This document shows positions 16,283-61,133 of a stretch of 64,000 nt of DNA, piece by piece. The stretch is from Candidatus Woykebacteria bacterium (GTDB lineage: Bacteria > Patescibacteriota > Microgenomatia > Woykebacterales > RBG-16-39-9b). The stretch is taken from the NCBI GenBank assembly GCA_040876345.1, contig JBBDPM010000006.1:392547-456546 (forward strand), in the 5' to 3' direction. Position numbers and translations under genes: made by a program. Numbering within the stretch: the first letter of the stretch is position 1; each line of letters begins with the position of its first letter. The notes beneath the pieces are model-generated. The model saw only the letters and a program-made list of their open reading frames with translations, made no database searches and was not told where the DNA came from.

Positions 16283-16283
16283 G

Positions 16284-33875: not shown

Positions 33876-36602
33876 CTAAGTTTTTGGTGCTGGAACACTG
33901 TTAGTAGCCTTGTCTAGGAAGCCGTCGAAAAATCTAAACACAACGTAGAGCGCAAGACCCACGACGACGATGTATCCCCAGTCGAACATGTCTATCGGGG
34001 AGAGTTCGAACCAGTTTGCAAAGAGGGGTACATAAACTATCAGTAGTTGGAGCAAAACAGCGGCCGCTATAGATATTGGTAGGAGCAGATTTGCTGTCCA
34101 AGGAATATTATAGTCGCTGCGAATGTTTACAAGTCTTATCAGTTCAAAAATAACTATTGAGATAAAAGCCACCGCCCGCGCCTCGCCAAGGCTTTCGGAA
34201 AGATTTATGTAAAAACCTAGTAAGACGGCTCCCGCCAGAATGAATCCAAAAAAAACAATCTCAAACCAAACTCTTTTGTTCATTATCTGTTCTTGGTATT
34301 TCCTTGGGGAATAGCGAAATATCCCTTTTTCAGCAGGATCAAGTCCTAGGGCTACTGCCGGAATACCATCGGTAACAATGTTTATCCACAAAAGCATCAC
34401 GGCTGTCAATATTACGTCTTGGAATAAAATTAGAGCCAGGAAGACCACGATAACTTCACCGACATTACAGGAAAGCAGGTAGTCTACAAATTTACGGATA
34501 TTGTCGAATATGCCTCTGCCTTCTTCAATGGCCGAAATTATCGTTCCGAATTTATCATCCAGAAGGACCATGTCAGAAGCTTCCTTAGCTACATCAGTAC
34601 CCGTGATACCCATCGCGATACCAATGTCAGCTTTCTTCAGAGCTGGAGCATCGTTTACACCGTCTCCAGTCATAGCTACAAGGTGCCCGTGCTTCTTCAA
34701 CCCTTCCACAATTTTGTATTTATGTTCCGGGTTTACCCTGGCGTAGATGTTTATCTTCTCGACTTTACTGCTAAACTCCTCATCGGAGAGCTTTTCAAGA
34801 TCAGCCCCAGAAATTGCCTCGCCTTTTATGCCAATCTCGGCAGCAACTGCTTTGGCGGTGTCCAGATGATCTCCAGTGATCATTACCACACTAATTCCGC
34901 TTTCGGTTGCTTGCTCTATCAATCCTCTAATATCTTCTCTTGGTGGATCCATCATTGCCTGCATTCCAACGAAGACTAGATCCTCCTCGACTTTTTCAGG
35001 ATCAGCCTTAGCTATCTTTTTGTAAGCAAATCCCAGCACCCTTAGAGCCTTGGCCGCCATTTTCCCGTTTTCCTGCAGAAACTTCTTTTTAGACTCCTCG
35101 GTCAAATCCGCTTCAGACCCATCTTTAATGAACTTTGAGCATTTGGAAAGTACGATTTCCGGAGCCCCTTTTGTGTAAACGAAAAGATCGCCATTTTCTT
35201 TTGAAACTACGCTCATCATCTTTCTCTCTGAGCTGAAAGGGACTTCGTTGACCCTCTCCCCAACTGATTTAAGACCGGCCTTGGAGGCCGAAACAATCAA
35301 AGCTGCCTCGGTTGGATCTCCTAGCACTTTCCCATCTTGCAGATGGGCATTGTTACAGGAAAGCCCACATTTGAGAATCATCTCAATTTCCTTAGGATTC
35401 GCTGGCGCACCGCCCTTTTCAAATTTACCTTCTATATCATAGCCTCGGCCGCTAACGCTGTAGCTCGCCCCGTCAAAATATATCTCTCTCACGGTCATCT
35501 CACCCTTGGTTAGAGTTCCGGTCTTATCTGCACAAATCACGTCCACGCTTCCGAGAGTCTCCACGCTGGTCAGTTTTCTCACCAAAGCATTTTTCTTCAA
35601 CATTCTCTGCGTGCCAAAGGCCAAGGATATGGTAACTACCGCTGGCAACCCTTCCGGAATTGCGGCTACTGCCAGAGCAACCGCGGCAATAAATGAATGG
35701 AGGACTCTCTGAAGCAGGCTAAGATGGGCAAAGTCTTTGGCAAAAAAGACAATAAATACAAAAACTACGGTGCTAACCGCTAGAGTCCCATACCCCAAAA
35801 TCTTCCCCAGTTTATCAAGCCTTTTTTGAATCGGAGTCTCTTCGTCTTCAGTTTCGGCAACTGAAGTGGCAATCTTACCAATCTCAGTCGAGTCTCCAGT
35901 AGCTACCACAATTCCTCTGCCCCGACCGCTGGTTATAGAAGTGCCCGAGAAAACCATATTTTTTTGATCGGCGATTTGTAAATCGCCTTCGAGGCTGTCG
36001 GCGATTTTATTAACGGGTGTGGACTCCCCAGTTAGAGAAGCTTCGTTTGTTTGAAGACTAGCTAACTCAATTATCCTTATATCGGCGGGAACTTTTTCAC
36101 CCTCTTCTAAAACAACCAAGTCTCCCGGAACAAGCTCGCTGGTGTCTATTTCCTTGGTTACCCCTTCCCTTATCACCTTTGCCTTAAAGGCTAATAGCTT
36201 TTTCAAAGCTTCAATCGCTTTTTCCGCTCTGTATTCTTGAAAAAAGCCTAAAACGGCTATCATAATAACGATGGCGAGAATTAGCCCCGCCTCAATTAAA
36301 TCCGATTGATCCCTACCGCCGAAAAAATAAACAAGTAGCGTCATAGCTGCGGAAGCCAGTAAGATAATCGTTAGAAGGTTTTTAAACTGGTCGACTAGAA
36401 TAACCAGCGGGGAGATTCTTTTCGCCTCAGTTAGTTTGTTGGGGCCGTATTTTTCAAGACGAGCTTTTACTTCTGCTAAGCTTAAACCCTTTTCACTCGA
36501 ATCCAGATTTTTTAATACTTCTTCTTTTGAAAGTAAATAGACGTGCTTTTCGGAGGTTTGCGACATTAATTTAAGCATAATCAAATTAATTTCACTATGC
36601 AA
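33876..36602 (-). CDS. P2-type cation-transporting ATPase (Ca2+/Mn2+ pump family)
   Basis: TGES, CADKTGTLT phosphorylation site, AIPEGLPAV TM4 motif, TGDHLDTA, GDGVNDAPALKKADIGIAMG; ~908 aa. Confidence 0.9.
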   Translation of the reverse strand: MHSEINLIMLKLMSQTSEKHVYLLSKEEVLKNLDSSEKGLSLAEVKARLEKYGPNKLTEAKRISPLVILVDQFKNLLTIILLASAAMTLLVYFFGGRDQSDLIEAGLILAIVIMIAVLGFFQEYRAEKAIEALKKLLAFKAKVIREGVTKEIDTSELVPGDLVVLEEGEKVPADIRIIELASLQTNEASLTGESTPVNKIADSLEGDLQIADQKNMVFSGTSITSGRGRGIVVATGDSTEIGKIATSVAETEDEETPIQKRLDKLGKILGYGTLAVSTVVFVFIVFFAKDFAHLSLLQRVLHSFIAAVALAVAAIPEGLPAVVTISLAFGTQRMLKKNALVRKLTSVETLGSVDVICADKTGTLTKGEMTVREIYFDGASYSVSGRGYDIEGKFEKGGAPANPKEIEMILKCGLSCNNAHLQDGKVLGDPTEAALIVSASKAGLKSVGERVNEVPFSSERKMMSVVSKENGDLFVYTKGAPEIVLSKCSKFIKDGSEADLTEESKKKFLQENGKMAAKALRVLGFAYKKIAKADPEKVEEDLVFVGMQAMMDPPREDIRGLIEQATESGISVVMITGDHLDTAKAVAAEIGIKGEAISGADLEKLSDEEFSSKVEKINIYARVNPEHKYKIVEGLKKHGHLVAMTGDGVNDAPALKKADIGIAMGITGTDVAKEASDMVLLDDKFGTIISAIEEGRGIFDNIRKFVDYLLSCNVGEVIVVFLALILFQDVILTAVMLLWINIVTDGIPAVALGLDPAEKGIFRYSPRKYQEQIMNKRVWFEIVFFGFILAGAVLLGFYINLSESLGEARAVAFISIVIFELIRLVNIRSDYNIPWTANLLLPISIAAAVLLQLLIVYVPLFANWFELSPIDMFDWGYIVVVGLALYVVFRFFDGFLDKATNSVPAPKT

Positions 36603-36646
36603 TAAGAATTGACAACAACTCTCCTTCCAGGTAAAATTAATTTGTT

Positions 36647-36838
36647 ATGGGGCTTTTTGGCGGTGATGACAAAAAGGAAGAAGTAAAAACTTGTCCCAAC
36701 TGTGGTAAGGAATTAAAACCTGGTGAGGGTATCCGAAAAGAAAACGGCCATTTTTGTTGTGACAAATGCTGCGAGGTGGGACCAAGGATTGAGGAAAAGA
36801 AGAAACAAGGTAAACCTCTTACTTGCGAGTTTTGCTAA
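36647..36838 (+). CDS. TRASH/YHS-like Cys-rich metal-binding mini-protein
   Basis: 63 aa, CPNCGKELKPGEGIRKENGHFCCDKCCE fits C..CG...nG..FCs..C pattern; divergent from P-type ATPase. Confidence 0.45.
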   Translation: MGLFGGDDKKEEVKTCPNCGKELKPGEGIRKENGHFCCDKCCEVGPRIEEKKKQGKPLTCEFC

Positions 36839-37134
36839 TACCTCGTAAAAAACTTCCCGATAATTTCCTTGCTTGAAATGTATCCAAAGCTACGGCTGTC
36901 TTGACTGTCCTCTTGATTAAGACCAACTACGTAGTAGCTTTTATCTAAGATTTTTTTCACTTTTTTGAGGGCTATCTTTCCCTTATCGTGGCGGTCGCGA
37001 AAAGCAATAATATCGCCTATCGTAGGATCGGAAAAAATGTACGCCCAACGATTTATTATAATGCGCTGGCCAGAATAAAAATCTGGCTCCATACTGTGGC
37101 CGACTATTTTGAAGCGCTCTAAGGGAAACCGCAT
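36835..37134 (-). CDS. sodX: SodX-like S26 (signal-peptidase-I-type) maturation protease for Ni-SOD
   Basis: GHSMEP catalytic Ser box and VVGLNQEDSQDSRSFGYI box E; immediately downstream of sodN with 1-nt overlap. Confidence 0.65.
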   Translation of the reverse strand: MRFPLERFKIVGHSMEPDFYSGQRIIINRWAYIFSDPTIGDIIAFRDRHDKGKIALKKVKKILDKSYYVVGLNQEDSQDSRSFGYISSKEIIGKFFTRY

Positions 37135-37628
37135 TACCCTTTTGTGGGAAGAACTATCTCACCACCTGATGGATAGTTAGAAGGGGCTTTAGTAGGTTTA
37201 ACTCCCTTAGTCTCCCAGAAAATTTCGGTAAAGTCTTGCACTTTAGCTAATAATTGCTCCGAGGCTTCTGGGTTAATTTCTTGGCGAACCTTTGAAGAGA
37301 GTTTCATTATTTCGAAAACCAGAGAGTGTAATTTAGGATATCTCTCAAGGTGTTCTGGCTTGAAATAGTCGCCCCAAATAACCCTAACTTCTTTCTTTAC
37401 TAGTTCAGCGTGTTCTTCTTTGACAAGTGTGTAGCGAGCAAGTTTGTGCTCTCTATCTTTACTATCTTCATCTGGCAACTCGTTGATAAGAGCAGTCATT
37501 CGAATAACGGTGTGGGCGGCTACTTGAGCTAAGTGTGGGTCATAAATTCCACAAGGAATATCGCAATGGGCATAAATAGTTTTTGGTGTGGAAATCTTAT
37601 CGATCGCTCTTAGCAAAACCTTAATCAT
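37134..37628 (-). CDS. sodN: nickel superoxide dismutase precursor (Ni-SOD)
   Basis: 20-aa leader then HCDIPCGIYDP Ni-hook (His-Cys-x-x-Pro-Cys-Gly-x-Tyr); 164 aa. Confidence 0.85.
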   Translation of the reverse strand: MIKVLLRAIDKISTPKTIYAHCDIPCGIYDPHLAQVAAHTVIRMTALINELPDEDSKDREHKLARYTLVKEEHAELVKKEVRVIWGDYFKPEHLERYPKLHSLVFEIMKLSSKVRQEINPEASEQLLAKVQDFTEIFWETKGVKPTKAPSNYPSGGEIVLPTKG

Positions 37629-37734
37629 AAATTCCTCCCTACGGGAAATAATTTAGCAGACAAATAAGGTAAAGTAAACAACCAACTAGAGGTTGAACCT
37701 ACTTGAACTTAATGGTAAAATTGCAATCTGTTAT

Positions 37735-37809
37735 TCCCCGGTAGCTCAATGGTAGAGCGCGCGACTGTTAATCGCTAGGTTGTAGGTTCGAGTCCTACCC
37801 GGGGAGCCA
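37735..37809 (+). tRNA. tRNA-Asn (anticodon GTT)
   Basis: 7-bp acceptor TCCCCGG/CCGGGGA, D and T arms (GTAGG-TTCGAGT-CCTAC), anticodon loop cTGTTaa, 3' CCA encoded. Confidence 0.85.
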
Positions 37810-38187
37810 ATTTTGAGTTTTTGCGTGTGAGAGGATTACATCAAAGGGCTTTTGGAGTGTTATATCAAGACTTTTTCCGTTCCAATTAGAGTTCTGAAAT
37901 AGGTATTTTAGCAATTCTCTCTTTTCTTCCAAATCCGCTTTTTCGAATAGCTCGTAAGCTCGACTTGCCAGTTCTAACACTTTTGTAGCTTCAATGTAGT
38001 AGGTCTCGTCAGCCTTGCTGTGTCGTTCGCTTTGAGTAAGTATATCGTTCTGCTTATTCTTGTATTCTTTGAATTTCTTGTCATAGAAATCTTGAGTAAT
38101 CCACCGCACAACGTAGAGGCGGGTTAAATTTTTTCTTGGTTTTGGAATCGAATCCCTGTGAGAGCCCATTAGTCGCAAAGCGATCAT
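37795..38187 (-). CDS. hypothetical protein abutting tRNA-Asn 3' end (possible remnant of integrated element)
   Basis: 130-aa ORF whose last codons are read from the tRNA 3' end; no recognisable motif. Confidence 0.3.
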   Translation of the reverse strand: MIALRLMGSHRDSIPKPRKNLTRLYVVRWITQDFYDKKFKEYKNKQNDILTQSERHSKADETYYIEATKVLELASRAYELFEKADLEEKRELLKYLFQNSNWNGKSLDITLQKPFDVILSHAKTQNWLPG

Positions 38188-38213
38188 TAGAAGCGAAGCG
38201 ACGCGTAAATCTC

Positions 38214-38272
38214 TAGCTTTCTACCGGGAGAGCCAATCATTTTTAGCCTCAATTTCAATGTCAAAAATGCCT
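38214..38272 (+). repeat. cassette-boundary repeat element copy A (tRNA-Asn 3'-end-like CTACCGGGAGAGCCAAT + TTTTAGCCTCA module)
   Basis: 14/17 identity to tRNA-Asn 3' end CTACCCGGGGAGCCAAT; shares TTTTAGCCTCAA with copies B,C. Confidence 0.6.
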
Positions 38273-38304
38273 ACTATTATTTTTGAAGTTTTCCTATAAA
38301 ATCT

Positions 38305-38613
38305 TTGTTAAGTAAAAAATTTGTAGAGGAGGTGATTTTCTTGCCAATAGGCACATTTCTAGATTCTTTTCCAACAATGCTATTTGTCAGTGTTCACATA
38401 GCACTTCTTTTGGTAGGGGTGTGGGCAGTTAAAAAAGCTATGGATATGAAGCTACCGTTTGCTCAAGCTTTCTGGCTGTATCCGTTAGTGCACGTTGGAT
38501 TCCTTTCCTACTTTGGAGGAATTTTCACGTTTAAAATGGCAGTTTTTTTGGAGCAAGTCCTTGTGGTTATTATGGTAGTTTGGATTGTAACAAAAGCTCA
38601 AAAAGCTGGCTAG
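38305..38613 (+). CDS. small membrane protein (3 TM)
   Basis: 102 aa hydrophobic ORF followed by terminator. Confidence 0.45.
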   Translation: MLSKKFVEEVIFLPIGTFLDSFPTMLFVSVHIALLLVGVWAVKKAMDMKLPFAQAFWLYPLVHVGFLSYFGGIFTFKMAVFLEQVLVVIMVVWIVTKAQKAG

Positions 38614-38676: not shown

Positions 38677-38772
38677 GTAAGTTCCAACATAGTTTACTAG
38701 TCCGAGCCAATAGTACAAACCCCAATAACTAACAATTTACATTGTCATCACAATACTTTTTAAGTTCCAACG
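38677..38772 (+). repeat. degenerate repeat element copy (GAGCCAATAG...CCCCAATAAC core flanked by direct TAAGTTCCAAC repeats)
   Basis: TAAGTTCCAAC at 38677 and 38760 flank GTCCGAGCCAATAGTACAAACCCCAATAACTAACAA. Confidence 0.45.
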
Positions 38773-39642: not shown

Positions 39643-40137
39643 ATGAAAGTTAAAATATTTGTAACGGGTGGGACATTTGATAAAGAGTACAACGATAAGG
39701 ATGGACAACTCTTCTTTAAATATACCCATCTTCCCGAAATACTTGAGCTGGGACGTTCACGTGTCGTTGTTGATGTAGAAACCTTGATGATGATTGACAG
39801 TCTGGAAATGACAGACGAAGGTAGAGAAAAAATCGCCAAAAATTGCCTTGATATAAATGAAAACAAGATTATCCTTACTCACGGGACTGATACTATGGTA
39901 GAAACTGCCAAAGTGCTTGCTAAAAGAATAAAAAATAAGACTATTGTCCTTACAGGTGCTATGGTTCCTTTTGTATTTAGAAGTTCTGATGGATTATTTA
40001 ATTTAGGAGCAGCCTTGGCTTTTGTCCAAGCTCTTCCTACAGGTGTTTACATTGCTATGAATGGGAGATATTTTAATTGGGACAATGCTAGGAAGAATAA
40101 GGAGACGGGAGAGTTTGAACCAGTACCACAGGACTAG
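39643..40137 (+). CDS. L-asparaginase/glutaminase family protein, short (N-domain only)
   Basis: IFVTGGTFD and ILTHGTDTM asparaginase active-site motifs; 164 aa; 3' end of ORF contains a repeat-module copy (CAGGACTAGAACTCTAGCTTCAA). Confidence 0.65.
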   Translation: MKVKIFVTGGTFDKEYNDKDGQLFFKYTHLPEILELGRSRVVVDVETLMMIDSLEMTDEGREKIAKNCLDINENKIILTHGTDTMVETAKVLAKRIKNKTIVLTGAMVPFVFRSSDGLFNLGAALAFVQALPTGVYIAMNGRYFNWDNARKNKETGEFEPVPQD

Positions 40138-40237: not shown

Positions 40238-40345
40238 AGTTCTAAGTGCGTCGAGTAGCGGGAGCCAGATATTTTAGCCTCAGAGTACTCCTATCAAACT
40301 AGTTCAACCCCAACAGGACTAGAACTTTTAGCTTCAAAGAGCCTT
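40238..40345 (+). repeat. repeat element copy C (most complete: modules 1+2 with 8-nt terminal inverted repeat AAGTTCTA...TAGAACTT)
   Basis: AAGTTCTAAGTGCGTCGAGTAGCGGGAGCCAGATATTTTAGCCTCAGAGTACTCCTATCAAACTAGTTCAACCCCAACAGGACTAGAACTT. Confidence 0.7.
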
Positions 40346-41246: not shown

Positions 41247-41310
41247 AAATTCTAAGTACGTGGCGTAGTGGGAGCCAATATTCAAAGATAAAACCCCTAC
41301 TTCAGTTTTT
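41247..41310 (+). repeat. repeat element copy D (module 1: TTCTAAGTACGTGGCGTAGTGGGAGCCAATATT)
   Basis: close match to module 1 of copy C. Confidence 0.6.
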
Positions 41311-41726: not shown

Positions 41727-41766
41727 ATTGACAATACCAACTTAATTGTATATTATTGTCATATAC

Positions 41767-42075
41767 ATGGGGCTTGACGATATAGGTGGTTTTGATTGGG
41801 ATGAGGGAAACATTTTAAAGAACTGGGAGAAACACAAGGTAAAGCATACAGAAGCGGAAGAAGTTTTTGAAAACAAACCAAGGTTTGTTTTTCCAGACAC
41901 TCAACATTCTAAGGTAGAGTTAAGATACGGTATATTAGGAGTAACCAACGAGAAAAGATTACTTTCAGTTACCTTTATGTTGAGAAGCAATCGGACAAGA
42001 GTGGTAAGTGCTCGGGATATGAGCAAAAGAGAAAGGAAATTTTATGAAAAAATTAAAGCAGCTACCAAAATTTAA
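41767..42075 (+). CDS. brnT: BrnT-family ribonuclease toxin (DUF497)
   Basis: FDWDEGNILKNWEKHKVKHTEAEEVF matches BrnT signature; start taken at MGLDD. Confidence 0.75.
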   Translation: MGLDDIGGFDWDEGNILKNWEKHKVKHTEAEEVFENKPRFVFPDTQHSKVELRYGILGVTNEKRLLSVTFMLRSNRTRVVSARDMSKRERKFYEKIKAATKI

Positions 42076-42325
42076 AAACGAAGATGGGGAGCGTGATTTT
42101 TGGGCAAAGCACGATTTTATTGATTACTTCGATGTCGACAAGGTGATCGTTAATCCTTCCTTCCCAAATTTAAAGCCTTCAACTCAAACCATCTCAATCC
42201 GTCTAACTCAGTCGTTACTAAATGCCCTTAAAGAGCTCGCAAACAAAAAAGATGTTCCCTATCAATCCCTAATGAAGATGTATTTGTCGGAAAAGGTTGA
42301 GGAGGAGTTGCAATCTGTAAAGTAA
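42044..42325 (+). CDS. brnA: BrnA-type antitoxin
   Basis: overlaps brnT 3' end; ISIRLTQSLLNALKELANKKDVPYQSLMKMYL resembles BrnA/DUF4415 C-domain. Confidence 0.65.
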   Translation: MKKLKQLPKFKNEDGERDFWAKHDFIDYFDVDKVIVNPSFPNLKPSTQTISIRLTQSLLNALKELANKKDVPYQSLMKMYLSEKVEEELQSVK

Positions 42326-42383
42326 GTTTCAACTCTTGAAGCTACCCGAAAAGCTAGTTTTTTGTTTTGCTATAATCAATGGC

Positions 42384-43115
42384 ATGAAAGTGGCCATAAT
42401 AACTGGTGCTAGTAGTGGCATCGGCAAGGTAGCTGCAGAGCGGCTCTTGAAAAATGGCTGGAGAATATACGGCTTATCACGCACTGAACCGAACATTAAA
42501 AATGGTAACTTTGTGTGGCTCGCCTGTGACCTAGCAAAGCCTGATACCATCGCAAAAACATTAGAGAAGATCGCTGAGCCCAGAGTCGACTTACTCGTCA
42601 GTAATGCTGGCGTAGCCTTTGAACAGCCACCGACGGGAGCCACACAAGAATCCTATGAAAAGATGTTTTCTGTTAATGTTTTAGCCCCGATGCTGCTAAC
42701 TGCTATGTTGAAAGATAAGATCGCCCACTCTACTATCATTAGTATTTCATCAGTTTCCGACCGTCTTATTGAGAAAGATTACGCACTTTATTGTAGTTCC
42801 AAGGCCGCGAATACTCGTTTTTTTGAAGCTCTAGCAGATAATTTAGTGGGCGCTAAAGTCTACACTTTGCTACCTGATTACGTTGATACCCCAATGTTAA
42901 GAGAACTTGAGGAAGGCCGTAACTTCAATTGGTCGCAAGCATTGAGTGTAGAAGATCTTGTAAAGTTAGTGGTTGATCTCGCATTAGGGAAATTTGATTT
43001 GGCGTCAGGTTCAAATATAATTGTCGTGAATAACGCACTCAAAGAGGATCTTGCAAGTCGAGAAAAACTCTATGGTTTTAATACTGATACAGGCGAATTA
43101 GTTAAGTTGCAATGA
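42384..43115 (+). CDS. short-chain dehydrogenase/reductase (SDR)
   Basis: TGASSGIG cofactor motif, YCSSKAA (YxxxK) catalytic motif. Confidence 0.8.
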   Translation: MKVAIITGASSGIGKVAAERLLKNGWRIYGLSRTEPNIKNGNFVWLACDLAKPDTIAKTLEKIAEPRVDLLVSNAGVAFEQPPTGATQESYEKMFSVNVLAPMLLTAMLKDKIAHSTIISISSVSDRLIEKDYALYCSSKAANTRFFEALADNLVGAKVYTLLPDYVDTPMLRELEEGRNFNWSQALSVEDLVKLVVDLALGKFDLASGSNIIVVNNALKEDLASREKLYGFNTDTGELVKLQ

Positions 43116-43166
43116 AGTTCTAATTTCAGTCACTAGTAGGATCCATTGAATTTAGCCTCGTTTTTT
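43114..43166 (+). repeat. repeat element copy F (GAAGTTCTAATTTCAG ... TTTAGCCTCG)
   Basis: shares AAGTTCTAA start and TTTAGCCTC module. Confidence 0.45.
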
Positions 43167-43376
43167 CATATCCCCAGGTAGGACGTTCGAGACTTTATTT
43201 GCATTCAATTTGGCCACGAGTTCTTCTACAATCTTTGCAGAAATAATGTTTTCATTCTTTTCAAAATCCAAGGTTTGTTTTGAGTAGCGACTTTCCGCTC
43301 TTGGTGTTAAATTAACTGCTGTCTCAGAGGTAAATACGTACGGGTAGGCGCTTTTATTGCCACTGCTCCAGAGCAT
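43152..43376 (-). pseudogene. DinJ/RelB-like antitoxin fragment (C-terminal half only)
   Basis: RYSKQTLDFEKNENIISAKIVEELVAKLNANK aligns with C-terminus of intact DinJ-like gene at 49436..49726; N-terminal RHH part missing, no toxin partner. Confidence 0.5.
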
Positions 43377-43418
43377 GTGGAGCGGGTGTTAGAAGGGCTT
43401 TGATTGAATACACAAGTG

Positions 43419-43830
43419 ATAATATAAGTTATTTTATCGATAAAATCTCCCTATTTCACCTTGTTTTTGAAACCATTCATCCGTTCAATGATGGGAACGG
43501 TAGAATCGGCCGAATATTAATTATCAATTATACAAATTAGGATTTCCGGGAATAATTATTCGTGATAAAGAGAAGCAAGTCTACTAACGTTCTTTCAAAG
43601 AATATCGTGATGATAGAAACACTAAAACAATTGAAAGAATAATATTGCTGGCAATAATGGAAAGCTTGCATAAAAGGACCGCGTATCTTAAAGGAATAAA
43701 AATTATTAGGGCTTCTGAGTTTGCAATACAGAAAAACAAGCCCCTTCCGGTAATTCTTAATGCAGCAAGGCGCCAAACAATCCCCGCTTTCAGAGAAAAA
43801 GGTGTGTGGAAAATTGGAATAGATGCGTAA
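43419..43830 (+). pseudogene. Fic/Doc-family protein pseudogene (N-truncated, frameshifted)
   Basis: [23 protein letters not shown] (Fic motif HPFxDGNGR) then stop; downstream [16 protein letters not shown] continues in another frame. Confidence 0.6.
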
Positions 43831-43924
43831 TTTACATTTTTCGCCGATCTATCAATATTTCCAGCTTAATCTATAACACTAGCCCAATGATTTTTTTTAC
43901 TCCTTAACTTATTTTCCTAACCTT

Positions 43925-44806
43925 TTAACTTTTCAATTCACGAAGATTGATTGGTGTCCAAATCTCACCAAATATCCCACTGGCTAGCAGCTGATCAAGA
44001 GTTGTAAGAGCAAAAGTAAAATGAGTCTTAAAAAAAGTCTTTTCTAGAGCCTTTTTAATAAACTTTGTTAGGAAGAGCCGAGTTTGATCATTGGCGCAGA
44101 TAAATAGCGCCACCGGATTAGTTCCCGGTTGCTGGTCTGTATCTGAGTCTGAGTACTTAAGGTACTGTCGGACTCTATAGCGAAGATAGTACCTGGGGAC
44201 TCCTTGCTCCATTAGTTCAAGGAAGTAGCGCCGCTCTTTCCTAGATTTGAAACGGCTTCTTTGCCCTTCCTCAAAAGTCTCTCCAAGGCTCTCTTGCGTC
44301 TTTTCTTTTTTGATTATCTCTGAAGGCGCTCGGTTGAGAGAAAAGAGAGCATCGGGATAGGGTTCAATCATGTCCTCAACCTCAGAGAGGTCTACCTTGG
44401 TGTGGAAATAGTTAAGGGCATTTAGGTCCTTTGTCCTTTGCAAAAGCTCAATGTATAGATTAGCAAGAGATAAACAATGATTTCTAAATTTATCTGATCG
44501 ATACTTTTCTCGGTACAGTTTGTGGACGATATCAGAATTCCCTTTTCTTTTTAAGAGCCGGACTCCAGTGGGGGCAGCAAAATAGACTGCCGGTTGAATG
44601 TTTAAAGGTATCTTCCTCTCGTAAATCCTCACCAGATAACCCTTACTAACCAAGTCTCTTAACCAAGCATTGATTCTTTTGTAATCTTTGTGCTCCAGGA
44701 GTGTTTGAACCTGAATTCTATCTAGAAATCTAAACTTATAAATAAACATCATGACTTCTTGTTGTTTGCTAGTTATGTAGGGAAGATCCGCAGACCAGTT
44801 TTTCAT
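43925..44806 (-). CDS. replication-relaxation family protein (plasmid/ICE-type wHTH)
   Basis: ITSKQQEVMMFIYKFRFLDRIQVQTLL...INAWLRDLVSKGYLVRI matches Replic_Relax N-terminal wHTH pattern. Confidence 0.55.
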   Translation of the reverse strand: MKNWSADLPYITSKQQEVMMFIYKFRFLDRIQVQTLLEHKDYKRINAWLRDLVSKGYLVRIYERKIPLNIQPAVYFAAPTGVRLLKRKGNSDIVHKLYREKYRSDKFRNHCLSLANLYIELLQRTKDLNALNYFHTKVDLSEVEDMIEPYPDALFSLNRAPSEIIKKEKTQESLGETFEEGQRSRFKSRKERRYFLELMEQGVPRYYLRYRVRQYLKYSDSDTDQQPGTNPVALFICANDQTRLFLTKFIKKALEKTFFKTHFTFALTTLDQLLASGIFGEIWTPINLRELKS

Positions 44807-44946
44807 AGGTAAGGGCAGGTAATTTGGCAGAAGATTCCTTGAGTAGTGGGTAGAATAAAGAAATATTATTTTACTCCCTTTAGTATACTAAAGGAAAGAG
44901 GGAACAACCCCTATAAAATTCGACGCGTATAGTAGGCGCAGAAATT

Positions 44947-44978
44947 GTGGCCACTACTGCCCTAGATGGTGGCCACTA
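44947..44978 (+). promoter_or_regulatory. direct repeat GTGGCCACTA x2 (22-nt spacing) upstream of replication-relaxation gene
   Basis: GTGGCCACTActgccctagatgGTGGCCACTA; each contains TGGCCA palindrome. Confidence 0.4.
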
Positions 44979-45132
44979 AATGTGATTCTAATAAAACGCT
45001 AATTTTTTTCATTTTTAGAACCAACCCAAATTTAATCTGGTTTTATATTAATCAAGCGTTCCCAACTTCACTCGCCCATATTTAAATTTGAGTTGAAATT
45101 GAAGCTATAGGTACTATATAATCCGCTTTGTT

Positions 45133-46395
45133 ATGAACACGCTTCTTCGTTGGCCGTTTCCGGCAATTTTCTTTATACTAGCCCTGATAGTTGTTTTTTG
45201 GCTTAACAAGACGCCGCCATCTGTGTCGGTGCAAAGTGGGCCGAGCCAAAAAATGACCGAGGAGCAGGCTGAAACTTTTGTCGAAAATGAAATGCTAAAA
45301 TGCTCAAAGCAGTTTAACCCTGCTGGCTGCACCGAGCAAGCTTCAAAACTTTTTTTGTCCCAAATGAGCTATGACCAATTATTAAAGGCTCTTAAAACTG
45401 CGACAAAAACCCCTTCCGTTTATGAAATTTGTCACCCACTAGTCCATTTTATCGGTCGGTCTAGCTACACATTAGAACATGACATGGATAAACTTTTCGC
45501 TGCTGACAGATCAGTTTGTGATTCTGGCTTTTACCACGGGGTAATTGAGCAAAACCTAGAAGAGAAGGGCACTATTGTTTTCCAAGACAACCAGGTGAAA
45601 TCTTTTGAGGGCGTTAAGGATTTATGCGGGAAAATAGAAGACTACTCTATTCCACTTCGATACAGTAGTTGTGTTCATGGCCTTGGCCATGGTTTGATGT
45701 ACGTGACCGATAATGACCTGATGATTTCTCTGAAAGGTTGCGACACAACACCTGGTCCTGGTACTTGTTATGGCGGGGTGTTTATGGAAAACGGTGGCTC
45801 GGCTACAAACCCCTATCACTATTCAAAGTATCTTCGAGCTGACGACCTACTTTATCCATGTAATAGCCTCGAAGAAAAATATCTAGTCGCCTGTTATCGA
45901 TACCAAAGCCTTTATTATGCCCGGCTTACCAGTCGAGATTGGCCAAAAACCCTAGATTTGTGCTTAAAAGTGCCCAAGGAATATCAAGGAACCTGTATTC
46001 AGTTTGTAGGTAGTAACCTGATTAATTATTCTGAAGATATAAATCTGATGAAAAGTGTCTATGCAAAAGTTCCCGAGGCTTACCAAGGGTATTTTATAAC
46101 CGGCCTTGTCTCTGGTCTAGGAGAGGATAATGTGGGGGTGCCTAGCAAAATGAAAGCAGTTTGTGATTTTGTTAGTGGTTCGAGCTTAGAGACCAGTTGT
46201 TATAAAGACATAGGAGTTGCCATAAGAAGGTGGTCGTTTGACCTGCAAGAGAGGCAACACTTTTGTGAAGAAGCTCTTGCAAGATCTGCCTTTGAAAACT
46301 GTGCTTATGCTAGCATACCCAACTTTGATCCCTTCTTTTATCGAGTATTCTCGGGGATAAAAGAGCTAACAAACTTCAGATTAGATTATTACTAG
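45133..46395 (+). CDS. Cys-rich secreted/membrane-anchored hypothetical protein
   Basis: 420 aa, N-terminal TM anchor, ~24 Cys. Confidence 0.45.
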   Translation: MNTLLRWPFPAIFFILALIVVFWLNKTPPSVSVQSGPSQKMTEEQAETFVENEMLKCSKQFNPAGCTEQASKLFLSQMSYDQLLKALKTATKTPSVYEICHPLVHFIGRSSYTLEHDMDKLFAADRSVCDSGFYHGVIEQNLEEKGTIVFQDNQVKSFEGVKDLCGKIEDYSIPLRYSSCVHGLGHGLMYVTDNDLMISLKGCDTTPGPGTCYGGVFMENGGSATNPYHYSKYLRADDLLYPCNSLEEKYLVACYRYQSLYYARLTSRDWPKTLDLCLKVPKEYQGTCIQFVGSNLINYSEDINLMKSVYAKVPEAYQGYFITGLVSGLGEDNVGVPSKMKAVCDFVSGSSLETSCYKDIGVAIRRWSFDLQERQHFCEEALARSAFENCAYASIPNFDPFFYRVFSGIKELTNFRLDYY

Positions 46396-46445
46396 TGAGA
46401 CCTTTTGAGGCTCTTTTTCTTTTAAATGTGTAGTATACTTACTTC

Positions 46446-47480
46446 TTGATGAAAGTATCAGCTGCTCCAATTTTGGTAAAACCCAAGTTCTCTCATTCTG
46501 AAGGCTCAAAGATTTACTCAGGTCTGAGAGAAAAAGTGACTGCGGCTGGGATACTGGGCCGATCCTACTATTATTATTTATTTTCGACTCTTGTAACCAT
46601 TTTGGGGACAGCCGTCTCAGTTCATGGGGCTCTTGTTTCCTCGTCCATTTTAGAAGTCGCTCTTTGGTCAATAGCTTTTGTGTTTTTTTCAATACAGCTA
46701 GCTGGTTTTTTCCATGATGCAGGTCACCGGGCAGTATTTAAGAGCACCTTTTTTAATGACTTGTTCGGCGGTTTTATTGCCGCTCTTGCCAACATCTCCT
46801 ACTCTTACTGGAAGTTTAAACATAATAAGCATCACGCTAGTCCCAATGAAGTCGATGAAGACCCGGACATCGAAATCCCCTTTATCTCTTTTACCCACCG
46901 GAAAAAGATGGCTAACCCCCTGGAAGAAAGGCTTAAACCCTACCAAGCTTACTTATACTTTCCGCTGGGAGTTTTTGCCCTAGTGTATTTTAAGTTTCGA
47001 AGCCTTGTGTTCTTTAAAGGAAATCGAGGAACCTATCTTCTTTTGGAAATCCCAATTTACCTAATTGGAGGTGTCATTTGGTACATTGTTCCTTTCTTTC
47101 TCGTTCCCCTCCCCCACGCTTTGGTATTCTTGGCCTTATCAAACTTGGGTGTTGGTTTCTATCTGATGAATATTTTTGCTCCAAATCATAAAGGGATGCC
47201 TCAGATAGAAAAAGGCGCTGAATTTTCCTTCTTGGAGCAGCAAATAATAACCGCCCGAAACGTCAAGAGTAATCCCCTTTTGGATATTCTATACATCGGT
47301 TTAAATTACCAAATTGAACATCATCTTTTCCCTAATTGTCCTCGTAACAAACTAAAATTAATCACTCCTTACGTTTTGGAAATTTGTAAAAAATACAATT
47401 TGGAATACAGCGAGGTAAGTTTGGTTGAAACTAACTTGATTATTCTAGGTGAACTAAACGAGGTAGCCAGCAGTTCTTAA
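46446..47480 (+). CDS. membrane fatty-acid desaturase
   Basis: three His boxes HDAGH, HNKHH, QIEHH; multi-TM. Confidence 0.8.
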   Translation: MMKVSAAPILVKPKFSHSEGSKIYSGLREKVTAAGILGRSYYYYLFSTLVTILGTAVSVHGALVSSSILEVALWSIAFVFFSIQLAGFFHDAGHRAVFKSTFFNDLFGGFIAALANISYSYWKFKHNKHHASPNEVDEDPDIEIPFISFTHRKKMANPLEERLKPYQAYLYFPLGVFALVYFKFRSLVFFKGNRGTYLLLEIPIYLIGGVIWYIVPFFLVPLPHALVFLALSNLGVGFYLMNIFAPNHKGMPQIEKGAEFSFLEQQIITARNVKSNPLLDILYIGLNYQIEHHLFPNCPRNKLKLITPYVLEICKKYNLEYSEVSLVETNLIILGELNEVASSS

Positions 47481-47484
47481 GGCA

Positions 47485-48210
47485 TTGATAACTGCGCCAA
47501 AAAATGCTCTACTTTTAATAAGTATGGATCAACTAGCACCAAAATCCAAAACTTTTCAAGATTCTTTGTATGAAAAGGCGGCTCGCAACCAGAGCCTGGT
47601 TAAAGCCTTGTTTGACATTTCCTACTCAATACTAATTTCCATTGTGGTTTTAACTACAATCTCAGCCTTCAGAGACCAAGAAGTATTTAATTACTTTCTG
47701 GTAAAAAGAGCTATTTTTGGCAGACTTGCTCTGGTAGTTTTACTTATCACTCTGACACCAGGAATACTGGGAAGATTTAACATCCAGATAAAGGCTATAA
47801 GAATAATTACCCTTTTTCGAAGGCGCCTCGGAATTTTGGTTTTCTTGCTAGCCTTTACTCATGCAAGTTTAATGTTCCTTCCGAAAATCGTCAAAATTGA
47901 ACCGTTCCTAATCCCCCCACCCACCTTTCAGATTTTTGGAATCCTGGCCTTAACCATACTTTCTTTCATGTTCCTCACTTCAAACAATTTTAGTGTGCGA
48001 AGGCTTGGACCTTGGTGGAAAAGGCTGCACCGTCTTGTCTACGTTGCGCTCTTATTTATCTTGCTACACACCGCTTTACAAAGAACTAGTATTTGGAGCA
48101 TATCGGCCGGGGTATTTTTCGCTCTGGAGATTTCTTCATTAATATACGCTTACTTAAAGGGTGGTTCATTCAACAATCCCACTCTAAAACAAACCCCAAA
48201 AACCCCGTGA
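47485..48210 (+). CDS. MsrQ/YedZ-like ferric-reductase-type heme b membrane protein
   Basis: LAFTHASLMF and LGPWWKRLHRLVYVALLFILLH motifs; 6 TM; directly downstream of desaturase. Confidence 0.55.
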   Translation: MITAPKNALLLISMDQLAPKSKTFQDSLYEKAARNQSLVKALFDISYSILISIVVLTTISAFRDQEVFNYFLVKRAIFGRLALVVLLITLTPGILGRFNIQIKAIRIITLFRRRLGILVFLLAFTHASLMFLPKIVKIEPFLIPPPTFQIFGILALTILSFMFLTSNNFSVRRLGPWWKRLHRLVYVALLFILLHTALQRTSIWSISAGVFFALEISSLIYAYLKGGSFNNPTLKQTPKTP

Positions 48211-48255
48211 AATTTGCCAACTAGCAGATTTTTATTGCTAAAAATTAGTCTATGA

Positions 48256-48519
48256 TTAAATACCCCGGTAGATATCCTTTCTGTGGCGGAAGCGGTGGAG
48301 AGTAAAGGAAGTTTCAGTAAAAGAGTAGGTGAGTCGGTATTGTCCAATGCGAACTCGGTAAACCTTATCTTTTATTCCAGTGCTTTTGCGAATATTAAGT
48401 TTAGGATCAAGCGGATTTTCCAGGAGAATAGAGGTTAGATGATTAGATTTTTGACGAATTTCGGTAGATATTTTGGCCAAATCTTTCCTGAATTGAGGGG
48501 TCACAAGTAGGGATCGCAT
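48256..48519 (-). CDS. RelE/ParE-family toxin
   Basis: KDKVYRVRIGQYRLTYSF...FTLHRFRHRKDIYRG C-terminal RelE signature. Confidence 0.7.
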   Translation of the reverse strand: MRSLLVTPQFRKDLAKISTEIRQKSNHLTSILLENPLDPKLNIRKSTGIKDKVYRVRIGQYRLTYSFTETSFTLHRFRHRKDIYRGI

Positions 48520-48530
48520 TTAATGCCTGG

Positions 48531-48755
48531 TTAGTACAGGTCTGCTAAGGATTTGATTTTTTTCACTTTGCCGACTCGTTCTTCCTCAATTGATTTTTTT
48601 AGACCATTGAGAAACTCTTCGCGGTAAGCACCTTGCGATTCAAGTATATTTTCAGTGAGATCGGAGAGCTCAGAGCTTAATTTGTGGATTTTTTTAATTT
48701 CTTTGGTAGAAACAGTTGTGGATGCTTTTTCCATATCAAAGCCATTATAGCTCAA
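48531..48755 (-). CDS. putative antitoxin partner of RelE
   Basis: 74-aa ORF immediately upstream of toxin in same strand; no clear motif. Confidence 0.4.
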   Translation of the reverse strand: MSYNGFDMEKASTTVSTKEIKKIHKLSSELSDLTENILESQGAYREEFLNGLKKSIEEERVGKVKKIKSLADLY

Positions 48756-49147
48756 AGGAGGGATTCATATCGTCCGATAGTCAGGAGGGCATACAGCACT
48801 TGTCCACCTCGATTGTCGAGATACCGGCACACGAAAAACCGTTGTTACAGAACTGGCCCCTTCAGCGCCGGATTATCGTGGCGGAGCTCTCAAATATGTT
48901 TGGCGAGATTGCCAAGCACGCTCACGAGGAAATGGTCTTGCTGCAGAACAGCTAGATCTCACCCGTGAGCTAGTAGGACGACAACGTCGACAGAAACTTC
49001 CACGGGGAATGGCAGACACTTTCGTGTCCGCCCTCTTCCCCTCAATGGCTGCATCCGCCAACTGGCGGAGATCTACCTCTACGTGGTGCAGCTAGATACG
49101 TTCGACAGTCTCAGTACTGTGGAACTAACTAAAGATCAAAAAGAATG

Positions 49148-49186
49148 ACGACCCGTTCGACTACGCTCAGGGTCGTTTTTCTTTGG
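49148..49186. terminator. Rho-independent terminator
   Basis: ACGACCC-loop-GGGTCGTTTTTCTTTGG; T-rich on both sides. Confidence 0.6.
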
Positions 49187-49191
49187 GTTAC

Positions 49192-49455
49192 TTAATAAAC
49201 TTGATTGTGGGTGCCGATGTCGTACAGCCAAAGCTCGTTACCAACTACTTTGTAAACCACTCTTACATCTCCCGAAATTGAAAAGGCTCGGTAGCTGCTT
49301 AGCTTTCCAATAAGTTTGTGATCTTTTAAAGTAGGTTGGTCTGGATCGTCGACGAACTGTTTTAACCGGGTTTGAAATTTAGAAACAAGCTTGGGGTTGT
49401 GGATTATTCGTTTCTGGTAATTCTTAACAAAAGTTTTATGAACCTTTATTTGCAT
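49192..49455 (-). CDS. YafQ/RelE-family toxin
   Basis: LKDHKLIGKLSSYRAFSISGDVRVVYKVVGNELWLYDIGTHNQVY typical YafQ C-terminus. Confidence 0.75.
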   Translation of the reverse strand: MQIKVHKTFVKNYQKRIIHNPKLVSKFQTRLKQFVDDPDQPTLKDHKLIGKLSSYRAFSISGDVRVVYKVVGNELWLYDIGTHNQVY

Positions 49456-49726
49456 CCAATTTGGCTATCAAGTCTGACACATTTTTCGCAGAAACGATAT
49501 TTTTATTCTTTTCAAAATCAGCAGTTTGCTTTAAATAGCGGCGCTCCGAATTGCCTGACAGTTTAACAGTTTCCTGTATCATAATCTCAAGTTTATCAGC
49601 AGCCAGTTTTGTCAAGAAAATTCTTATAGATTCCTGCAGGGAAGAAAATCCCTGACGAGTAGCGGCTTTCTCGGCCCTTTCTTTTAAATCTTTCGAGACT
49701 GGAACTTGCAAGATCGACTTAGTCAT
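49436..49726 (-). CDS. DinJ/RelB-family antitoxin
   Basis: overlaps toxin start; N-terminal RHH-like SILQVPVSKDLKERAEKAATRQGFS; homolog of fragment at 43152..43376. Confidence 0.7.
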   Translation of the reverse strand: MTKSILQVPVSKDLKERAEKAATRQGFSSLQESIRIFLTKLAADKLEIMIQETVKLSGNSERRYLKQTADFEKNKNIVSAKNVSDLIAKLDANKGS

Positions 49727-53231: not shown

Positions 53232-53323
53232 TTAAAGAACAGGTTAATTGTATCATATTTTTACCCTATAGTCAAGTTTGGTGAGAAGTAGACGTGGTGT
53301 CCGCATCAAACGCGACTGATATG

Positions 53324-53797
53324 TTAAACGTGTCTGTCGGCTACTTTAGTAGCACCGAAGGACTCTGGCTTTATTTTATATTCAAATCCGCTTCCTAGCA
53401 CCATCCCAGTCACCCAACGAATCATATCGCGGGTTACGCCATCCTCCCCGACATCCAGGTGAACTTCTGGCTCATACCCGGAAAGGCCGTTGTGCTGGAA
53501 GGTATCCCGTATTTTCCAGGCAAGTTCAATCGAAAATTGAGTTTCTTTTGCTATTCTCTCTGGCAAAGAAAATACTTTCTGGATATTGTTTTTTTGCCAA
53601 AAATATACCCCACCCTTACCGATTCGGTGAGCAATAATAGCTGTGGCAAACTCCACGTGTGAATTACGGGCTTCAGAATCCGTCCCGACAATTACTTTGT
53701 ATTTGAAACTCGAATCCTTTTTTATATACTCGGCTACTTTTTCGATGACTTCTTCGTAGTCCAAAGGTCCGAATGTTGGCGAGGTAAACTTATCCAT
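53324..53797 (-). CDS. YkuK-family RNase H-like protein (DUF458)
   Basis: FTSPTFGPLDYEEV...KVIVGTDSEARNSHVEFATAIIAHRIGKGG parallels B. subtilis YkuK (FHSPTFG...IGTDSQ) by recall. Confidence 0.6.
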   Translation of the reverse strand: MDKFTSPTFGPLDYEEVIEKVAEYIKKDSSFKYKVIVGTDSEARNSHVEFATAIIAHRIGKGGVYFWQKNNIQKVFSLPERIAKETQFSIELAWKIRDTFQHNGLSGYEPEVHLDVGEDGVTRDMIRWVTGMVLGSGFEYKIKPESFGATKVADRHV

Positions 53798-53819
53798 AAC
53801 GCAACATTGTACTATTTTT

Positions 53820-54362
53820 TCAAAAAATTTCCAAGTTTAAGAAGCTTTCTACTAAAGCTATTCCACCACCCCAAAAGACTCCTGTCCAAAAAAATGAGTT
53901 TGCGAAGCAGCTAGCCACAAGAAGTAGTTTTACTTTTGCGCCTTTAAAATTTAGTAACCTAAAGGCAAGTGCTACCGGAAATGGCCCGACTGTAAAAACT
54001 AGCGGGATAAAGGCTGATATTGTCCCAATTTTCAAAGCTTTTTGATAATGGGCTGGTAGTCTCCGACTCCACTTATTAATTTTATCTAAAGATTCCTCCT
54101 TTGTAATTTCGTCGAAGAAGTAAATTACGAGAATCGAGGCTAGTGACGCCATTATCAATGTGGCGGGTATTACCCCAAAAAGTAAAATAAAAGCCGGTGT
54201 GAGAAACTTAAACAGCGTAATTGGGAGAGGCCCGTTTATAGGCCCTGGCCAAATTATTGCGGCGATAGCTAGATGGGGATGCTTGAACACTTTACTCCAG
54301 GTAATCTTTGAGTTTCTTTGAACGTGTTGGATGGCGGAGCTTCCGAAGGGCTTTGGCCTCAA
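53820..54362 (-). CDS. hypothetical membrane protein
   Basis: 180-aa hydrophobic ORF; overlaps rpoD 3' end so true start probably internal. Confidence 0.35.
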
Positions 54363-55356
54363 TTTGCCGGATTCTTTCGCGCGTTACTCCAAATTCTCTA
54401 CCGACTTCTTCAAGAGTTCTTTGCCGGCCATCTTCCAAGCCAAAACGAAGCTTCAAGACTTTCTTTTCTCGGTCGTTAAGAGTGTCAAGCACCTCAGAAA
54501 GATGCGATTTCAAAAGTTCGACGCTAGCTTGATCCTCAGGACGGATTTCCTCATCGGGAATAAAATCTCCCAAGGTTGAGTCTTTCTCTTCACCGACTGG
54601 TGCTTCTAAGCTTGTTGGTTGCTGGGATACTTTAATAATTTCGCGAACTTTTTCCGGCTCAATACCCATCTCGGCCGCTATCTCCTCAGGCCTTGCTTCT
54701 CTACCAAGCTCCTGCATTAACATACGGCTAACTCTAATAAATCGGTTGATAGTTTCAACCATGTGGACTGGTATTCTGATTGTCCGGGCTTGATCGGCAA
54801 TTGCCCGGGTAATAGCCTGACGAATCCACCAAGTAGCGTAAGTTGAAAACTTGAAGCCCTTCCGATAATCGAATTTCTCGACTGCCCGCATCAAGCCGAT
54901 ATTGCCCTCTTCAATTAGATCAAGTAGAGATAGACCTCTGCCCACATATTTTTTAGCGATGGAGACAACCAACCTCAAGTTGGAATTAATTAGTCTTTCC
55001 TTAGCTTTTGGATCTCCCCTCTCCACTCTTTTCGCAAGTTCGGTCTCATCGGCAGCAGAAAGTAGCGACACTCTTCCAATTTCCTTCAAATACATACGAA
55101 CAGGGTCTGTGATGGAAACTTTTTCCAAAGTTTCAAGAACATCCAACTCTTTTTCCATATCGGCTCCCTTCTTTTCCTCACCTATCTCAAAGACATCGAC
55201 CCCTTCTTCGGCAAGTTTAGTGTAAAGCTCATCCAGCGCTTGAATATCAGCTTCGGCTTCCGGAAAAACCTCGAGAATATCATCTTGGGTTAGAAACCCT
55301 TGATTTTTACCTTTTTTTAGAAGATCTTGAATCGGTGTGGTGGTTGATTTTGCCAT
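54292..55356 (-). CDS. rpoD: RNA polymerase primary sigma factor (sigma-70, short form)
   Basis: region 2 [37 protein letters not shown], region 3 and 4 HTH; 354 aa. Confidence 0.9.
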
Positions 55357-55358
55357 CT

Positions 55359-57146: not shown

Positions 57147-57216
57147 GGCGTGTCATGTAATGACCAGCATTATACTACTTATTAATTAACCATAAGGAGA
57201 TATCGACGAGGCAGAA

Positions 57217-59400: not shown

Positions 59401-59462
59401 TAGAATTTGTTTAAGCAGGCTTAACTTATGGCTTTGACCACCTGAACCCAAGGGGGCGAAGG

Positions 59463-59552
59463 TGGCGGAGGGGGTGGGATTCGAACCCACGGTACCCTCG
59501 CGGGCACGCACGCTTTCCAAGCGTGTGCACTAGGCCACTATGCGACCCCTCC
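59463..59552 (-). tRNA. tRNA-Ser (anticodon GGA), long variable arm
   Basis: acceptor GGAGGGG/CCCCTCC, anticodon loop ttGGAaa, long variable arm, GTGGG-TTCGAAT-CCCAC T-arm, CCA encoded. Confidence 0.8.
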
Positions 59553-61020: not shown

Positions 61021-61133
61021 GGTTGCACCAACCAAGCGACTCATGATATCTTCTCCTTGGATAATGGCCACTAAAGCCAGTTTGGCAAGGAAGGGAGGGA
61101 CAAACACACGGCCATTCCAATTCATCGGTAAGT

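Follow-up and report, generated by a model that had tools for sequence, protein, structure and literature searches.

Large serine recombinases (LSRs) that serve as integrases, such as those of phiC31, Bxb1, A118/LI and TP901-1 as well as SprA and CcrAB, are built from a Resolvase domain, a Recombinase domain, a zinc ribbon and a coiled coil, and the full-length members of the recombinase family described here share this architecture (PHROG 'integrase' match at E 3.5e-62). Like the known LSR integrases, the family, which occurs in CPR bacteria, uses short att sites and leaves attL and attR with few bases in common. To our knowledge, well-studied LSRs use protein-coding or intergenic sites, whereas the CPR family targets the 3' end of a tRNA gene. 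It would further differ from known LSRs in placing attP across the 3' end of the integrase gene, so that integration rewrites the last residues, and in its hosts. The window, that is, the whole stretch of 64,000 nt from a Candidatus Woykebacteria genome analysed here, differs from all of these systems by carrying only the last 101 codons of such a gene and no catalytic domain.

Two kinds of tyrosine recombinase systems provide the closest parallels in behaviour. As in P4-like tyrosine-integrase islands, the 3' end of a tRNA is used and the tRNA is kept, with the integrase gene adjacent and copies of the tRNA end at the borders; as in tandem tRNA islands, remnants accumulate in tandem and presence or absence varies among relatives. 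Tyrosine integrases typically use an identity block of tens of nucleotides. In contrast to the islands that they form, the CPR family has a recombinase of another family and an identity block of 5-11 nt, and its far end is marked by a recombinase-binding P arm instead of a long tRNA repeat. The SSV1-type integrases of fuselloviruses, archaeal tyrosine recombinases whose gene is split in two by integration, likewise place the att site inside the integrase ORF, overlap the tRNA and leave fragments beside tRNAs as a fossil record. However, the CPR family is a serine recombinase that exchanges only its last few codons, and the 101-codon fragments owe their origin to a precise truncation that is distinct from the integration crossover.

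Within the window, a tRNA-Asn with an adjoining recombinase fragment lies at one border and the att core recurs at the other, an arrangement of the kind expected of a genomic island and absent in a related locus (L004). The initial annotation had recognized here the footprint of site-specific integration at a tRNA gene, which proved right in kind: P-arm attR sites, an LSR remnant and relatives with an intact element or none are all found. We consider it very probable, from sequence comparison, that the region downstream of tRNA-Asn represents a stack of remnants of small LSR-moved integrative elements (6-10 kb when intact) targeting the extreme 3' end of this tRNA. The LSR family that targets the tRNA-Asn 3' end in CPR bacteria appears to be undescribed, as no description of it or of its precise truncation point was found in the literature searched. 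The features are collected in Table 1.

Table 1. Positions of the tRNA-Asn locus features, predicted attachment sites and neighbouring mobile-type genes in the window
Feature	Position	Strand	Details
Functional tRNA-Asn(GTT)	37735..37809	+	ARAGORN; Rfam tRNA model 71 bits
130-aa ORF as called	37795..38187	-	Overlaps tRNA-Asn by 15 nt
LSR C-terminal fragment	37795..38100	-	Last 101 codons and stop; first ~30 nt by the tRNA are the predicted att P' arm
Core common to tRNA-Asn end and attR sites	37802-37809		GGGAGCCA, last 8 nt of the tRNA; from core comparison
Truncation junction	38096..38105		+ strand GTAAT/CCACC; gene orientation GGTGG/ATTAC
Decayed second tRNA-Asn copy	38137..38235	+	Leader ~38137-38152, pseudo-tRNA ~38153-38235
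Older recombinase 3' end remnant	38236..38280	-	Reads ..IFDIEIEAKNDWL, then SR-stop from the pseudo-tRNA
Small membrane-protein gene	38305..38613	+	Putative P-side cargo of an old element layer; homologues 72-79% identical after the L007 tRNA-Asn
Decayed P arm and core, putative attR of oldest inner layer	38681..38709	+	Position matches the L007 attR, past the corresponding gene and its terminator
Predicted attR: P arm GTTCTAAGTGCGTCGAGTAGC and core GGGAGCCA	40239..40267	+	PWM 38.1 bits (40240-40267)
Predicted attR: second P arm and core TTCTAAGTACGTGGCGTAGTGGGAGCCA	41250..41277	+	PWM 24.6 bits
Candidate further decayed P arm	43118..43145	+	Just past a short-chain dehydrogenase gene; PWM 11.6 bits, null level
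BrnT/BrnA (mobile-type)	41746-42325
Replic_Relax protein (mobile-type)	43925-44806
Fic fragment (mobile-type)
RelE-like toxins	48256-48519; 49192-49455
Antitoxin	49436-49726

A recombinase fragment that ends in the tRNA-Asn

The single minus-strand ORF of 130 aa between the tRNA-Asn and a near-copy of its 3' end had been noted to take its C terminus from the tRNA, and this is indeed the case: the ORF ends in N-W-L-P-G-stop, of which W-L-P-G-stop is the complement of the acceptor stem and CCA. Direct searches of the ORF against Pfam, NCBIfam and PDB sequences gave noise only. Its identity was obtained by a profile search for homologues followed by Pfam searches of the full-length matches. Its close homologues are all short, keep W-L without exception and often have a tail of antisense tRNA (LDSNQ.P, read from the T arm, is one example), and the family comprises 4,503 members at E <= 0.001 in the profile search. 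Its full-length relatives (~500 aa) carry Resolvase, Recombinase and Zn_ribbon_recom domains, with PF00239, PF07508 and PF13408 all present in full-length P0029, P0032, P0048, P0061 and P0123. A tyrosine integrase, the other of the two recombinase classes that had been proposed, is thus out, as the full-length family carries the serine-recombinase Resolvase domain.

Consistent with this assignment, an HMM built from 16 full-length LSRs matched the window at 37774-38154 (model positions 372-498, E 1.3e-41) in a six-frame scan of the 64 kb, and residues 30-128 of the ORF aligned with residues 391-489 of an intact LSR from a related locus (L018; BLASTP, 42% identity over 99 aa). The alignment of full-length LSRs itself is too divergent for scanning loci. 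Residues 1-29 of the ORF are unrelated to recombinases and are read from the antisense of a pseudo-tRNA and its leader, described below. By homology, then, what the ORF retains of a large serine recombinase gene of ~500 aa is its last 101 codons, and the suggestion that the enclosed gene is the remnant of a recombination module was borne out. The same scan finds only model positions 372-498, and the window contains no Resolvase (PF00239), Recombinase (PF07508) or zinc-ribbon (PF13408) domain. Because no catalytic part of a recombinase is found in the 64 kb, the remnants in the window would be unable to mobilize themselves. The AlphaFold model of the fragment (pLDDT 68.5, falling below 50 for residues 1-27) consists of a long helix and a small alpha/beta unit, and the predicted fold had no Foldseek match in the PDB at E <= 0.001. 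No relatives were detected among IMG/VR viral contigs.

Attachment sites and a decayed second tRNA-Asn

To define the att structure of the family, we used a comparison set of 83 related loci, comprising 80 metagenome loci together with L001, L003 and L018. The 3' end of the LSR gene overlaps or abuts tRNA-Asn in 32 of these 83 loci and tRNA-Gln, His, Ser or Trp in 7 others. After a conserved 'WL', the proteins end in one of two ways, either in an antisense-tRNA tail or in a conserved PLLDxFRT tail, and the latter is the P arm of the element, of the form GTTCTRAAYNYGTC...GGGGAGCCA. In eight loci with an intact LSR, the P arm occurs again 5.9-10.1 kb from the tRNA with no recombinase upstream. 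The P arm and the tRNA end have 5-11 nt in common, with GGAGC as the minimum block, and in the attR of this family the conserved P arm of ~28 nt always lies to the left of the core. The most direct comparison is provided by L155 and L156, which match at every position over 10,323 nt (100% identity) before continuing with the P arm in one and with tRNA-Asn in the other; the common boundary is GGAGC, and the breakpoint falls inside the last codons of the recombinase ORF. To judge from this alignment, the pair is a natural integration polymorphism. From the two classes of C-terminal tail and the L155/L156 breakpoint, attP therefore appears to span the 3' end of the LSR gene, with the crossover in the acceptor/CCA end. 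Att sites that can be read from genomes in this way, with a P arm of ~28 nt and, next to the GGAGC core, a P' arm in the 3' end of the gene, are candidate genetic tools for organisms that have none. Past the tRNA-Asn end in L155, positions 10324-16618 hold a newly integrated element with ORFs of 510, 762 and 570 aa, which we guessed from their opening residues to be an ATPase, a helicase and a methylase, possibly defence cargo.

Predicted attR sites of this type are present in the window. A weight matrix for the P arm was built from ten attR P arms of other genomes only, and its best score in shuffled windows was 15.4 bits. The sites near 40255 and 41266, which had been listed as more degraded copies of the tRNA end suggestive of repeated events, are two copies of one 28-nt motif and score well above this maximum (Table 1), so that both the copies and the repeated events stood up to analysis. 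The P arm of the former differs by 1 nt from that of L007; its minus strand reads WLPLLDALRTYNW, the tail of attP-type family members, and its right flank (40268-40295) resembles a recombinase 3' remnant. Together with the decayed site at 38681-38709, which owes its assignment to its position and scores 12.6 bits, that is, at null level, these two sites are, as judged by their P arms, the true far ends of the elements. The G+C content is modestly different, at 0.33-0.40 between 38.5 and 41.5 kb compared with 0.38-0.48 between 34.5 and 38 kb.

We next consider the second copy of the tRNA end. The 17-mer CTACCCGGGGAGCCAAT at 37795-37811 has a near-copy, CTACCGGGAGAGCCAAT, at 38221-38237 (15 of 17 identical, 2 mismatches), as the initial annotation had pointed out, and this is its sole further match in the 64 kb with <=3 mismatches. 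By chance 0.09 matches are expected, and none of 100 shuffles reached two. Local alignment of the tRNA-Asn with 38104-38245 revealed that the similarity extends well past 17 nt, reaching from position 19 to position 77 of the tRNA and interrupted in the T arm by a gap of 11 nt, and that it is significant (score 36 compared with 18.2 +/- 3.4 and a maximum of 33 in shuffles; 0 of 1000 as good). Further, the region 38137-38235 is homologous to the tRNA-Asn locus of another genome. A repeat of just 17 nt with two mismatches might be thought a chance similarity, but given these three results we regard that explanation as having next to no probability.

The similarity reflects a decayed second tRNA-Asn, in which a stretch of the anticodon arm is duplicated and the T arm is partly deleted, and the 3' end of which is the second 17-mer. 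It was recognized by alignment only, with no ARAGORN match and no Rfam match even at E <= 10; likewise, neither the P arms nor the pseudo-tRNA matched anything in Rfam. In a three-way alignment of window positions 38100-38360, the window tRNA-Asn and the L007 locus with its functional tRNA-Asn, the match runs from the leader through the complete tRNA and TTTTTAGCCTCA downstream of it into the next gene. A 47-nt stretch of the decayed copy is also common to L089 (score 43 compared with 16.1 +/- 2.7 in shuffles; 0 of 500 as good). The flank beyond the pseudo-tRNA reads, in gene orientation, ..IFDIEIEAKNDWLSR-stop, a decayed LSR end, and TTTTTAGCCTCA is common to the flank of the functional L007 tRNA-Asn and the right flank of the site ending at 40267. 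The small membrane-protein gene comes next, and in L007 a terminator and then a P arm come after each of its homologues. Because the likeness to the whole tRNA and its leader, the LSR remnant and the downstream gene of L007 all flank 38221-38237, the second 17-mer is, on this comparison, the end of a fossil attL, formed by the pseudo-tRNA-Asn and an old recombinase remnant, and marks an older, displaced copy of the target. The order in L089 is as in the window: functional tRNA-Asn, element with truncated LSR, attR, leader-like module, pseudo-tRNA end and LSR remnant.

Two smaller observations belong here. In L007, positions 5440-6880 downstream of tRNA-Asn hold two tandem units, each with a small membrane-protein gene, a terminator and a P arm, a repeated P-side element end. 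In the window, the second 17-mer coincides with a terminator-like + strand hairpin (GCTTTCT-ACCG-GGAGAGC followed by a T-run, within 38216-38264), which is a consensus match only.

Nickel superoxide dismutase (Ni-SOD), encoded beside the tRNA-Asn, was used as a synteny anchor; most matches came from unrelated lineages, and L004, L007 and L018 alone were useful. With the same Ni-SOD-tRNA-Asn synteny, L018 has an intact LSR of 491 aa that overlaps tRNA-Asn by 15 nt, within an element of 8.1 kb whose cargo comprises a SpoVG-like gene, two unknown ORFs and a type I restriction-modification system. L004, in which this synteny is also found, lacks an LSR; the gene of a RelE-like toxin ends 27 nt past its tRNA, the contig stops 106 nt past the tRNA, and the window homologue of this toxin gene (49192-49455) lies 11.4 kb from tRNA-Asn. 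Relatives therefore include one without an element, over the 106 nt of flank available, and one with a different, intact element.

Recurrent truncation at GT/ATTAC

In the window, homology to the LSR stops between 38100 and 38101, and the fragment starts at ATTAC. Truncated copies at 23 independent loci start at this same nucleotide, GT/ATTAC (the slash marks the breakpoint), and are joined to unrelated upstream partners. Pairs of truncated and full-length copies are 85-98% identical from ATTAC on and unrelated just before it. In a further, independent library of proteins, 50 fragments carry an N-terminal extension, and 29 of them start at model positions 384-390. The full-length genes keep GT/ATTAC at synonymous sites as well, with the Ile codon being ATT in 25 of 26 compared with 40% ATT usage overall. 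The flank of the partners has the consensus GGAGR and never a T at position -1, where intact genes have GGNAGT.

Several origins of the common breakpoint were considered and rejected. An assembly artefact does not account for more than 20 different sequences from many assemblies together with the 29 of 50 fragments of the independent library. A single origin of all truncated copies is contradicted by their being interspersed among full-length lineages and by the differing partner sequences, which include three points within element cargo genes (P0007, L096 and L101). A crossover at ATTAC in which a resident C-terminal fragment serves as attB was ruled out because the attR of the eight intact elements is not preceded by such a fragment, and also by the L155/L156 breakpoint at the tRNA end. 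Finally, similarity of the boundary to a P arm, which would make it a pseudo-att site for the LSR, was not consistent, with only 2 of 16 comparisons beating nearly all shuffles.

We tentatively propose, as a possibility that is well short of established, that LSR genes hold a conserved internal DNA site, (A or C)GT/ATTAC, at codon ~386 and ~335 nt from the att core, at which nucleotide-exact truncation recurs. Its products would keep the P' arm and mostly the P arm, and may be non-autonomous mini-elements or resident 'landing-pad' fragments that recombine with incoming elements; the site could be the nick or crossover site of another enzyme. Illegitimate recombination anchored at a nick site would fit the GT/ATTAC pattern. 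Michel and Ehrlich reportedly described in 1986 that deletions in rolling-circle replicons (pC194, M13) are anchored at the nick site. As in such deletions, one endpoint is fixed to the nucleotide and the other is variable, with a short consensus like the left half of the fixed site (GGAGR compared with GGNAGT). This likeness is a lead, not a membership, as no Rep or relaxase was identified in the LSR elements; the 390-aa ORF of L018 had no Pfam, PHROG or PDB match. Recurrent truncation with nucleotide precision lies beyond known LSR biology and points to a second cis-acting site or enzyme. We also note that the loci L091 (9530-9999) and L095 (8209-8264) have flanks that are 98.9% identical, and that between ..CAGCAAG and the ATTAC boundary the two carry unrelated segments of 469 nt and 55 nt, respectively, which looks like an exchange at the boundary.

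History of the locus and its neighbourhood

Comparison across the family shows how an element integrates. AttP lies across the 3' end of the element's own LSR gene, with a P arm, a core containing GGAGC and a P' arm that reads as the antisense of the last codons. The crossover takes place within the acceptor/CCA end and the tRNA stays whole. Integration sets the LSR gene convergent with the tRNA, with an overlap of ~15 nt, exchanges the last residues of the protein for antisense-tRNA codons and sends the P arm to the far end, the attR. The LSR itself presumably catalyses this reaction. In the window, we infer that an older tRNA-Asn copy, now the pseudogene at 38153-38235, took successive elements, the far ends of which may survive at 38681-38709, 40239-40267 and 41250-41277. 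The upstream functional tRNA-Asn would later have taken another element, which was presumably then deleted from codon ~386 of the LSR gene outward beyond its own attR, so as to leave the 101-codon fragment abutting the old leader and pseudo-tRNA. A hairpin at 38104-38128, just beyond the junction, was rejected as a terminator, being no better than shuffles (z = 0.12). The feature in the window is itself an ordinary decay product, a pile of fossil integrations beside a tRNA gene that is seen here in unusual detail. Beyond the window, integration, anchored deletion and allele replacement can be traced at one hot spot in very small genomes.

Three other accounts of the locus have to be weighed. 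In the initial annotation, the two 17-mers were the attL and attR of a single element decayed to ~420 bp and enclosing only a recombinase fragment, and both the statistically unusual direct repeat (15 of 17 identical) and the recombinase remnant between the two copies speak for it. Here the pairing is wrong. An attR of this family always carries its P arm on the left-hand side of the core, with tRNA identity of only 5-11 nt, but no P arm lies to the left of 38221, where the sequence resembles the tRNA all the way to position 1, with the leader before it; to the right of 38237 come an LSR 3' remnant and then the gene that follows the functional tRNA-Asn in L007, an arrangement of attL type, not attR type. 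We therefore judge a single 420-bp element to be highly improbable. Slightly less remote, albeit still unlikely, is a duplication of the tRNA in which a small circle with the leader, tRNA-Asn and a truncated fragment inserted by homologous (Campbell-type) recombination, with no older tandem pair. This predicts exactly the observed order of tRNA, fragment, junction, leader, pseudo-tRNA and old flank, and truncated fragments do recombine with other alleles: between L091 and L092, identity drops from ~97%, the value for the flank and for the fragment's 5' part, to 67-83% in most of the final ~180 nt. In L089, however, the leader and pseudo-tRNA directly follow a complete attR with no fragment junction, and a pre-existing tandem pair of tRNAs, as in the stack of remnants, is the simpler explanation.

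The third account concerns the fragment alone and is compatible with the stack of remnants. The 101 codons could be a maintained small gene for a protein consisting of the C-terminal domain only, for example an inhibitor of incoming recombinases, a role that we think doubtful, if the least so of the three. The frame is open in the window and at the majority of the 23 independent truncated loci, truncated copies compared with each other give a dN/dS of 0.05-0.25, the same as in full-length genes, the junction flank has the SD-like consensus GGAGR, and a promoter-like site lies upstream of the fragment in the window. On the other hand, the dN/dS values are confounded, as flanks are 97-99% identical and the 3' part of the fragment 67-87%, with the differences imported by recombination from functional genes. 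Because the variation in the 3' part of the fragment was imported by recombination with other LSR alleles, it is no proof of selection, and dN/dS as proof of fragment function was withdrawn once this mosaicism was seen. In addition, the start codon is not consistent, the nearest ATG, present in only about half of the loci, lies 13 nt away from the SD-like motif, and the predicted fold is without any match. The promoter-like site (TTGACA-17-AATGAT, minus strand 38264-38236) is a consensus match only; it lies inside the old recombinase remnant and points at the 130-aa ORF.

The reconstruction of the history is limited because the locus is rearranged relative to relatives (window 33876-37734 and 53300-63000 compared with L004, L085 and L089). 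The order in L004 is toxin, tRNA-Asn, Ni-SOD/peptidase/P-type ATPase and a block homologous to 53.3-63 kb of the window. In L085 and L089 this block comes right after tRNA-Asn, without Ni-SOD or ATPase, and in the window it lies 15.5 kb from tRNA-Asn on the 3' side.

The stretch from the last clear attR to the L004-type toxin gene (41746-49726) is rich in mobile-type genes (Table 1). Within it, 48680-49130 is G+C-rich and non-coding-looking by eye, matched no Rfam family at gathering threshold and precedes a hairpin and T-run at 49150-49185; it might be a structured RNA. Inside one of the element layers by the tRNA-Asn, an ORF of 164 aa (39643-40137) matches only the N-terminal domain of L-asparaginase (PF00710), maybe by coincidence. 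Upstream of tRNA-Asn, 36835-37628 encodes the Ni-SOD (HCDIPCGIYDP motif) and an S26-type maturation peptidase, here in a CPR genome; the closest relatives of this Ni-SOD are from DPANN archaea, Chloroflexota and CPR at 50-65% identity, which suggests horizontal transfer.
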